Part shown: one piece after another, positions 45,352 to 47,526 of the stretch | How the letters are laid out: the number at the start of each line of letters is the position of its first letter | Numbering within the stretch: the stretch's first letter is position 1 | Source: a virus | Lineage: Duplodnaviria > Caudoviricetes | Length of the DNA stretch: 64,000 bases | IMG/VR virus record: IMGVR_UViG_3300027749_000034 | Strand: one strand, 5' to 3' | Notes under the pieces: model-generated | The model's input: only the letters and a program-made list of their open reading frames with translations | Told to the model about the DNA's origin: nothing | Database searches by the model: none | Made by a program: the position numbers and the translations under genes

Positions 45352-47178
45352 ATGGCAGACATTCCAGTTATACCCGGCGTTTCAGTTACCCCAATGGGGA
45401 TACTCAATAGACCAATCAAAGACATCATTTGTGCTATCCTTTTTGGTGGCATCAATAACATGCTCAAAGGAAATTTACTTTGTGTAAATTTAGACTTGGA
45501 AAAATTGTTAGATGAACCAATTGTTGCAGACATAAAAGCCGAGTTGACAGATCTAAAGAATGAACTCAAGGCCATGGAAGAAGCGTCTGGTATCAAAGAT
45601 GTGCTTGGCCGAGTCAATCAGGGCATCGCTGAAGTTCAAAATCTACTGGCACTGGATGGCTTATGTAAAATTCCACTGAAGTGTCCTCCGATACCCGACA
45701 TCCTGAACATGACCATTGACGCAGAGTTTGCCACTGCCAATGCAATTTTGGATGATATTGGTAGATTAGAAAAACCAAAATTATGTATCAATGGTGCTGG
45801 TGGTCTCAATACTGGTTCATACAATCCCAGTAGCATCTTGGGTAGAATACAAAGCAACATTACCAGACTGGGAACTATTCCTGGTCATGAATTAGACATA
45901 TTAAAAAGACAATTGACACGAGTGACTGCTGGACTAAAGGCCAGTCTCAATAGACAGTTGTTTCCAGATTTCAGACACAAGACAGATTTGACAACAGGCA
46001 GGCCATATGCTAAAGGTGGTGCTGGTGTAATACTGGCCAGTGCCGCTGAACAGACCAAACTGAAGGCCAAGATTGCCGCTGACTCAGCATCGCCTGCAGG
46101 CCTACTGGCATGGCAACAGGTAGCAAACATGCCTGGAGCATCTGCCGCGGATATTCAAGCATCATATCCGCCAGGTGACGCCAGTCTAAAAGATGCAGTC
46201 AACATAGCACAGACTCTGGTAGGTGGAATGAAAAAGACTGCCAGTTATCCTTCCACAGCCAATGGAATTATAAATGCAAACATGTGGCCCGGTGTGTTGG
46301 GTCCAGACATATATGCTATGGCAGTACAGGCAATGAGTCCACAGGACCCGCTATTTGTACAACAAGATCCACTGTATGATTATTGCGGTAAGTTCATTGG
46401 ATACAATGAAACAGTTATAACCGGCGACTCTGCATACAAAGGTGGCGACCCAAAGAAAGATGCTGTATTGAATCCACACAAAACAAACTTTGAATTCAAT
46501 TGGATCGCAGATAGACAATGTTGGGCAGTCACTGGCGTACAAAGCGAGCAAGTGGTAAATGGAAGAAAGGACACTTATCTAGATGCAAATCCAGAAATTG
46601 AATTGCATCGAGGGTATAGTCATATTCTAAGTGTGCCAAGTGCTGACATCAGTGGATTCGTTATGAGTGGCGACTATCCAACAGCAACTAGTACGGCTCC
46701 AGAATTTTTTATATGTCGAGTTGGAAACGATCTAAGGCCACTGATTGCCAATGGCGAAATTGTCAAGTTCAACATGGGACTAAGCAGACTTGAGACATCA
46801 GAAGTATTGGACAATGCCAATGGTTGGCTACCAAGTGAAACAGAACATGCGGGTATTGATGGTCCAGAAGGATACAATCGTAGATTAGAAAACCCAATGG
46901 GTACCACATTGTATTTTTCAGTCGAACAACGACAATACTCGGGTACTGTTCCTCCGCTGTACCCAAGCAAGGACATTTGGTGGTATAATCCAACCACTCT
47001 TATAACACAACAGTGGATACCAGATGGCGAGGCCAGTGGTCAATGGGTTGTAGTATCTGATCAGGATAGAAACAATCATTGGTATGGATCAAGTCCTTTG
47101 CAGAGCGATATAAGTGCAAACTATCTGGCCTACAGTAATCGAAATGGTTCAGTTTTTGGCCTATTAAAATTAATTTGA
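45352..47178 (+). CDS. hypothetical protein (probable virion structural)
   Basis: 608-aa ORF after TAAGTA, adjacent to PAAR and the peptidase. Confidence 0.65.
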   Translation: MADIPVIPGVSVTPMGILNRPIKDIICAILFGGINNMLKGNLLCVNLDLEKLLDEPIVADIKAELTDLKNELKAMEEASGIKDVLGRVNQGIAEVQNLLALDGLCKIPLKCPPIPDILNMTIDAEFATANAILDDIGRLEKPKLCINGAGGLNTGSYNPSSILGRIQSNITRLGTIPGHELDILKRQLTRVTAGLKASLNRQLFPDFRHKTDLTTGRPYAKGGAGVILASAAEQTKLKAKIAADSASPAGLLAWQQVANMPGASAADIQASYPPGDASLKDAVNIAQTLVGGMKKTASYPSTANGIINANMWPGVLGPDIYAMAVQAMSPQDPLFVQQDPLYDYCGKFIGYNETVITGDSAYKGGDPKKDAVLNPHKTNFEFNWIADRQCWAVTGVQSEQVVNGRKDTYLDANPEIELHRGYSHILSVPSADISGFVMSGDYPTATSTAPEFFICRVGNDLRPLIANGEIVKFNMGLSRLETSEVLDNANGWLPSETEHAGIDGPEGYNRRLENPMGTTLYFSVEQRQYSGTVPPLYPSKDIWWYNPTTLITQQWIPDGEASGQWVVVSDQDRNNHWYGSSPLQSDISANYLAYSNRNGSVFGLLKLI

Positions 47179-47203
47179 CAAGCCGATCAAATAAGTATAT
47201 ACT
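47175..47203 (+). promoter_or_regulatory. sigma70-type promoter for tmRNA
   Basis: TTGACA-17-TATACT. Confidence 0.85.
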
Positions 47204-47209
47204 GTAAGT

Positions 47210-47499
47210 TATTGCTGTATGAAGCAAAGAGAAAAGTGTTCTGGACGGGGGTGCGAATCCCCCCAGGTCCACCATAAGCACATAGTTGTCCTAGATGAAA
47301 GAAACCTCTTAGGGCTCTAGTGGGGATTGTGTGCTTTTGATGGGCCTGACCTAGATTCGACAGGGCAACAAGTAACAGAGTGGACAGCACGACAGCGATA
47401 GTCGTAAAAACTAAACAAAAGTAACCGCAAACGACTCACAGTTCGCATTAGCGGCCTAACAGCCACTTAGGGTAAGACATACCTCGTAACAGAAACTCA
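47210..47499 (+). ncRNA. ssrA: circularly permuted (two-piece) tmRNA; tag ANDSQFALAA
   Basis: T-arm plus 3' acceptor CAGGTCC-A-CCA ends at 47274; intervening hairpin; 5' acceptor GGGCCTG...GATTCGAC at 47342 (G3:U70 pair); resume GCA 47427 to TAA 47459. Confidence 0.92.
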
Positions 47500-47526
47500 G
47501 AAAAGGTTGCTTCGGCAACCTTTTTC
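47500..47526 (+). terminator. intrinsic terminator of tmRNA
   Basis: AAAAGGTTGC-TTCG-GCAACCTTTTT. Confidence 0.9.

Follow-up and report, generated by a model that had tools for sequence, protein, structure and literature searches.

A two-piece transfer-messenger RNA (tmRNA) of the beta type was reportedly described from cells by Sharkady and Williams in 2004. In phages, two-piece ssrA genes have been found in the OM43/Methylophilales phage Melnitz and in pelagimyophages including Pelagibacter phage Mosig (Buchholz et al. 2022; PMC9004378), and the same study counted 133 unique phage tmRNAs, of which 53 were two-piece forms, 50 of them from aquatic samples. The tmRNA database of 2025 holds 79 bacteriophage sequences and introduced the Rfam family RF04321 (PMC11915505), and huge phages have also been reported to carry tmRNAs (PMC7162821). 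Here we describe a tmRNA gene on the + strand of a viral DNA stretch of 64,000 nucleotides, IMG/VR record IMGVR_UViG_3300027749_000034 (the whole stretch is hereafter called the window). Judging from sequence comparisons, we consider it very probable that a freshwater myovirus-like phage here carries a functional ssrA gene, circularly permuted and of the beta-proteobacterial type.

An earlier note on this DNA, made from its letters, had read the locus as a phage-encoded, circularly permuted two-piece tmRNA gene with its own promoter and terminator, and this reading stands because two independent detectors and the comparative evidence agree. ARAGORN called a permuted tmRNA ('tmRNA*') at 47182-47550 (+) with the tag ANDSQFALAA. 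Two Rfam models matched over their full length and above the gathering score, beta_tmRNA (RF01850) with 136.5 bits against a cut-off of 84 (E 1.6e-41, model positions 1-331 of 331) and tmRNA_permuted (RF04321) with 121.8 bits against a cut-off of 47 (E 2.9e-23, model positions 1-213 of 213), E-values that put the match far beyond chance; the beta type was the top-scoring model in its Rfam clan. The remark in the earlier note that standard annotators often miss the permuted form did not apply here, given that ARAGORN and Rfam both found the gene. The order of its parts is reversed, the T arm and the CCA (47272-74) lying upstream of the acceptor 5' strand (47342-48) and of the tag frame, and the gene lies in the gap between the open reading frames (ORFs) at 45352-47178 and 47577-48032.

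The gene opens with a sigma-70-type promoter (47175-47203) in which the -35 hexamer TTGACA (47175-80) and the -10 hexamer TATACT (47198-203), separated by a 17-nt spacer, match the consensus at 11 of 12 positions. The Rfam beta_tmRNA model itself contains a promoter, and both hexamers of the window align to its promoter positions. By position count, about half of the relatives described below still show weak TTGAC/TAtAaT signals in register with those of the window; only 16 of 86 of their upstream regions matched a strict regular expression for the promoter. The acceptor piece, about 68 nt at 47207-47274 according to the Rfam structure, begins where conservation across relatives starts (47206-47210). 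It carries a T arm at 47247-63 of 5 bp with a 7-nt loop (GGGGG at 47247-51, TGCGAAT at 47252-58, CCCCC at 47259-63), followed by the acceptor 3' strand CAGGTCC (47264-70), the discriminator A47271 and the encoded CCA ending at 47274, all read directly, and it supplies the strands 47213-18 and 47237-43 of the helices distal P2 and P2a, which were assigned from the Rfam structure and covariation. The intervening spacer of 67 nt (47275-47341) forms a hairpin with arms at 47276-87 and 47326-37 (-23.5 kcal/mol, z -3.24, from the fold), after which a leader TTGAT precedes G47342.

The coding piece, about 175-180 nt at 47342-47519 as delimited by Rfam alignments, nearest-relative identity and covariation, starts with the acceptor 5' strand GGGCCTG (47342-48), in which G47344 faces U47268 as G3:U70, the third pair of the 7-bp acceptor stem. 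The D-loop analogue (47349-60) contains GAUUCGAC, and GATTCGAC is read directly at 47354-61. Next come the coding-piece strands of P2a (47361-67, pairing with 47237-43) and distal P2 (47384-89, pairing with 47213-18), and the hairpin P3 at 47390-47404, whose covarying stem is 47390-93/47401-04. The tag reading frame runs from the GCA resume codon at 47427 to the TAA ending at 47459 and encodes ANDSQFALAA; the resume codon keeps a U at -5 and an A at -4, which we take to be the counterpart of E. coli U85 and A86. A stop-codon hairpin comes next in the coding piece, another hairpin follows at 47470-84, and the gene closes with an intrinsic terminator (47491-47519) that the minimum free energy (MFE) fold resolves into a 10-bp stem (47491-500/47505-14, GC core GGTTGC/GCAACC), a TTCG loop and a T-rich tail. 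The terminator is also part of the cellular beta-type Rfam model; a simple consensus scan for signals did not list it. Promoter, acceptor piece, intervening hairpin, coding piece with G3:U70, tag and UUCG terminator had all been proposed in the earlier note at these places, and all were borne out. The compactness on which it had remarked, leaving little room for pk2-pk4, is normal for the beta-type model, in which only a hairpin and the terminator follow the tag.

Scanning IMG/VR for the exact 32-nt T-arm/acceptor core returned at least 119 viral contigs, and on the core-bearing contigs listed ARAGORN called 94 permuted and no standard tmRNAs. In these at least 119 contigs the mature pieces are near-invariant amid very different flanks, whereas spacer and flanks diverge. 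The window shares flanking genes with only four contigs among the matches listed, and the core-bearing phages include complete genomes of 170-364 kb with terminal repeats. The nearest relative, a 40.8-kb IMG/VR fragment, is 100% identical from 47206 to the CCA and again from just before G47342 to about 47474; its spacer has diverged with indels, its terminator stem is altered on both sides in a compensatory manner with the UUCG loop kept, and upstream it has the same -35 hexamer, with TATAAT as its -10. Across the 94 ARAGORN calls the tag keeps its AND start and its (L/M/I)AA end and varies in the middle, ANDSQFALAA being the commonest version (31 of 94).

Freshwater IMG/VR contigs such as G001/L001 and L101 resemble the window closely, with an identical 32-nt core, nearly identical mature pieces and a stem-closed spacer. 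Some other IMG/VR relatives depart from the window in having long spacers with an ORF inside, a covarying pseudoknot downstream of the tag, or a tag 27-31 residues long. Tags of 27 residues of the ANANTTVTVSGKNIKFSARTAKESLAV type occur in six contigs with the same tRNA-like core (L108, L114, L010 and L040 among them); they differ from one another by conservative substitutions and end in LAV, not LAA. Two further contigs have a 31-residue tag ending in FALAA. In a second class of relatives (for example L100, L102, L103, L111 and L121) the tag is followed by a covarying H-type pseudoknot, in which 8 nt of the loop, GGTAGGTT for instance, form a helix with AACCTACC some 10 nt further on; this pairing occurs in several compensatory variants. 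This class is without a terminator at the post-tag place, where the class of the window has a 5-nt loop and the terminator.

Spacer length varied from 25 to 491 nt in 109 relatives. Of 81 unique spacers, 78 had their ends paired in the MFE fold, the 4 nt right after the CCA with the 8 nt that lead up to G1; the leader mostly ends in UGAU. In the long-spacer relatives a single ORF of 42-151 codons occupies 83-97% of the spacer and mostly starts 8-12 nt past the CCA behind an AAGGA-like ribosome-binding site (L117 and L085, each with 382 nt; L061 with 491 nt; L094, L081 and L007, each with 284 nt; L019 and L022, each with 183 nt). Relative to these, the 67-nt spacer of the window is the empty form.

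Helices were examined by covariation in 87 non-identical sequences, with 500 column shuffles and slid registers as controls; the acceptor stem was fixed by the search pattern and hence lies outside these statistics. P2a (47237-43/47361-67) was 99.7% canonical, distal P2 (47213-18/47384-89) was 94% canonical with 39 double changes (variants such as AGUUGU/ACAACU and GACUGU/ACAGUC), and P3 (47390-93/47401-04) showed 63 double changes (variants such as CGGU/ACCG, CGGC/GCCG and CAUC/GAUG); all three exceeded all 500 shuffles and the slid registers. Compensatory changes were also found after the tag, in the stop-codon hairpin, in the terminator and in the hairpin 47470-84, where several relatives have C-G for U-A. 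The earlier note had proposed as an inter-piece helix the pairing of 47209-18 with 47392-401. These segments are indeed complementary over 10 bp in the window (8 Watson-Crick and 2 G:U pairs), because the motif ACAGC is present at both 47384-88 and 47392-96. We rejected this pairing, which was 75% canonical in the relatives, a value reached by 387 of 500 shuffles, and which overlaps and would destroy the covarying P3. There is thus an inter-piece helix on the 5' strand named in that note, supported by covariation, with a partner 8 nt upstream of the one proposed, at 47384-89; the 5' strand was right, and the partner 47392-401, which shows no covariation and clashes with P3 at 47390-47404, was not. 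In place of the pseudoknot PK1, whose usual position is between P2 and the resume codon, there is the covarying hairpin 47390-47404, and the Rfam beta model likewise shows only a hairpin there. The structure assignment was made without the MFE fold and cofold, in which acceptor stem, spacer hairpin and terminator reappear but the T arm and P2 do not.

Among cellular genes, the permuted genes of Thauera, Noviherbaspirillum and others align throughout with the gene of the window and have the same layout. Shared features are the promoter position, a P3 loop containing GCGA, a tag of the ANDxxFALAA type, the post-tag motif CCUYGUWAC and the UUCG terminator. Overall identity to the sampled cellular genes was 47-57%, and the nearest match, 57% identical, comes from a 2.0-Mb genome in which the locus has 40% GC. 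Of 151 genomes sampled within the order to which Thauera belongs, only 4 scored above the cut-off of RF01850. A scan of genome contigs for the core with a loose pattern gave at least 120 matches, mostly standard tmRNAs of Chloroflexota, and among the 120 matches listed the exact core was present on only two short contigs of metagenome-assembled genomes (MAGs). These two, L127 (Crocinitomicaceae, 20.6 kb) and L144 (Haliscomenobacter, 23.4 kb), carry permuted genes; they are probably mis-binned phage contigs and may offer a clue to the host. Melnitz illustrates that the type of a phage tmRNA need not match the host.

The window is that of a tailed phage, encoding tail sheath and sheath-like proteins, a tail tube, a large terminase and a tail fibre. 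Its replication genes include several helicases, one of them DnaB-like, and a class Ia ribonucleotide reductase (nrdAB) whose nrdA is about 71% identical in DNA to cyanomyophage nrdA; GC content is about 42%, and 11 tRNA genes lie at 58019-61307. Downstream of the tmRNA gene are an acetyltransferase-like ORF and then genes for an HD phosphohydrolase, a polynucleotide-kinase-like ATPase and a phosphoesterase (48078-49756). Protein identity to two relatives is 99% for the phosphoesterase, about 96% for the HD protein and about 92% for the kinase, and a kinase and phosphoesterase near the tmRNA also occur in several otherwise unrelated contigs. The stretch recurs in freshwater and lake metagenome runs from many studies. 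A blastn search of the window against 50,697 phage records gave only two short matches, to Pelagibacter phage Mosig and to Xanthomonas phage BUDD, in a record set that may exclude entries of the genome to which the window belongs. The latter (ON758385, a cultured phage of 199 kb) has a permuted tmRNA with the ARAGORN tag VAANDADYSVARYA and 77.5 bits to RF04321, located at L277 1480-1931 (about 167.2-167.7 kb of the record), unannotated and partly under a coding sequence labelled 'hypothetical protein'.

The earlier note had also pointed to smpB as a gene to look for. A hidden Markov model built from five betaproteobacterial SmpB genes gave no match in the six-frame translation of the 64-kb window, and PF01668 gave none in five related core-bearing phage genomes, four of them at least 90% complete and three with terminal repeats (170, 347 and 364 kb), whereas 10 control bacteria were positive. 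Since no smpB was found in the window or in these five relatives, the RNA would have to use SmpB of the host. This negative result is relevant to the question of whether the complete system is encoded by the phage, and leaves the identity of the RNA as a tmRNA untouched.

On this basis we propose the following course of events. Host sigma-70 RNA polymerase would start at about 47207 and run to the terminator, giving a precursor of some 315 nt in which the spacer hairpin would stack on the acceptor stem. Host RNase P would cut 5' of G47342, with a U at -1, and host tRNA 3'-end enzymes would trim to CCA47274. The products, some 68 nt (acceptor piece) and 178 nt (coding piece) long, would remain joined by the acceptor stem of 7 bp, P2a of 7 bp and distal P2 of 6 bp. 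The RNA could then be charged by host alanyl-tRNA synthetase (AlaRS) via G3:U70 and A73 and be brought by host SmpB and EF-Tu to ribosomes stalled on stop-less mRNAs, where translation would resume at GCA47427 and append ANDSQFALAA, a putative degron of the ClpXP type. Maturation into two pieces was reportedly shown for the Caulobacter homologue by Keiler and colleagues in 2000 (cited in PMC9004378), and ALAA is an established ClpXP degron. What the phage would gain is speculative; the likeliest benefit would be ribosome rescue sustained while host RNA synthesis falls and mRNAs are cut, which would fit the neighbouring HD phosphohydrolase, the kinase/phosphoesterase pair and the array of 11 tRNA genes, with their suggestion of RNA repair and tRNA supply.

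Several points weigh against the reading as a functional ssrA gene. The T loop UGCGAAU has a G where U55 usually stands; the same loop is also found in standard tmRNAs of bacteria of the candidate phyla radiation (Saccharibacteria and Kazan MAGs). In the phage lineage both strands of the P2 middle are rich in purines; Rfam marks non-canonical pairs at this place, which is not paired as in the cellular beta model. No downstream PK1 partner for the P3 loop was found by eye, no dedicated pseudoknot search having been run, and the MFE cofold of the two pieces did not reproduce the T arm and P2. To these is added the putative dependence on the host that follows from the SmpB searches. Beyond the observed anatomy, conservation pattern and helices of the gene, we infer that the RNA would be cleaved at 47274 and 47342, alanylated and active in tagging.

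The RNA-library data belong in the same balance. RNA contigs of lake libraries from three studies are confined to 47205-47278 and 47338-47500, beginning at 47205-47208, the start of the acceptor piece; they leave the spacer and the flanks at depth 0, where a DNA run continues. These data are, however, assembled contigs in which relatives sharing the same mature pieces are pooled, and in one relative an RNA contig joins both pieces across a 93-nt spacer. We took the coverage of the two pieces as a weak hint of expression or processing and rejected it as evidence of processing on account of the pooling and of the contig that retains the spacer. That same contig, spanning acceptor piece, spacer and coding piece, would be expected if the transcript worked with its spacer retained, or if just one half of it were used, and the whole ORFs in some relatives' spacers would require the precursor to persist at least briefly. 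Yet for aminoacylation the CCA has to form a free 3' end, and here it is internal to the transcript. RNase P and the 3'-end enzymes would have the substrate they need in the conserved stem that closes the spacer end to end, with a U at -1 in front of G1; two-piece maturation was, moreover, reportedly shown for the Caulobacter homologue. We regard a functional RNA with retained spacer, or a single working half, as highly improbable, the least likely of the alternatives considered.

The gene might also have been captured recently from a host and bring the phage no benefit, as a passenger or as the remnant of an integration into host ssrA. That ssrA is a common integration site, with fragments in prophages (PMC9004378), and that the gene type matches cellular beta-type genes would suit such an origin. 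Here, however, the gene is complete and not a fragment, its mature pieces hardly vary across at least 119 viral contigs whose flanks differ widely, the complete genomes of 170-364 kb among them, its identity to the sampled cellular genes reaches only 47-57%, and the exact core was on just two short MAG contigs among the 120 matches listed, so that we hold a recent capture to be highly improbable. Slightly less improbable, though still very unlikely, is that the RNA acts as a decoy or regulator which competes with host tmRNA for SmpB, AlaRS or ribosomes, or serves as a sensor. A tag-less tmRNA-like RNA of mycobacteriophage DS6A is reported to inhibit the endogenous tmRNA (PMC11915505), and a decoy would be consistent with the lack of smpB in the window and five related phages and with the deviations in structure, namely the G55 T loop, the unpaired purine-rich P2 middle and the P3 loop for which no PK1 partner was found. 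What speaks against it is the tag, whose frame is intact and whose kept AND start and (L/M/I)AA end around a variable middle are the signature of a translated degron, as well as the kept U -5 and A -4 of the resume codon and the presence of all AlaRS identity elements. A functional, permuted beta-type ssrA gene thus remains our preferred reading.

The gene adds a clean, well-delimited freshwater example of the beta type to the phage two-piece tmRNAs already published; it is a version common in lake viral contigs and will not surprise a specialist. Its mature RNA is under strong constraint and the spacer that would be excised is free to vary, and the helix assignment given above corrects the secondary structure for this tmRNA lineage. 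The questions that it raises, about the advantage to a lytic phage of encoding a tmRNA and about the host factors on which this RNA draws, have been posed in the literature before; being short, with its own promoter and terminator and a canonical tag, the gene is a convenient object for testing them. Tentatively, and with a confidence that falls somewhat short of an even chance, we suggest that it belongs to a phage-specific sublineage of beta-type two-piece tmRNA that is undescribed as such. Such a sublineage may be marked by a near-invariant mature RNA across differing freshwater phages, from T4-like ones to one of 364 kb with terminal repeats, by the purine-rich, unpaired P2 middle and a plain hairpin instead of PK1, and by a stem-closed spacer that is empty in the window and holds small genes in relatives. 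If this is true, the near-invariance of the mature RNA across very different phages would point to exchange within the phage pool and not to repeated capture from hosts.

Compared with the cellular beta type (RF01850; for example Thauera sinica and Noviherbaspirillum album), the window shows the same order of promoter, acceptor piece, spacer, coding piece and UUCG terminator, and the two have in common P2a, distal P2, a P3 with GCGA loop, and only a hairpin and terminator after the tag. They differ in the middle of P2, paired in cells and purine-rich and unpaired in the window, in the T loop (UGCGAAU in the window, UUCGAUU in cells), in the acceptor strand (AGGUCC in the window, ACCUCC or AGCUCC in cells), and in that the gene of the window sits in a phage. 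With Melnitz and Mosig the window shares a permuted ssrA gene in a large, lytic, aquatic myophage that also has nrdAB and tRNAs. These two phages are marine and T4-like. Mosig has an alpha-type gene (RF01849, 67.6 bits) with the tag GEDNFALAA, and its DNA similarity to the window extends over only 64 nt, whereas Melnitz carries a glutamine (glnA-type) riboswitch in the 3' part of its alpha-type gene. The gene of the window, by contrast, is of the beta type and from fresh water, and Rfam found no riboswitch family at gathering score anywhere in the window.

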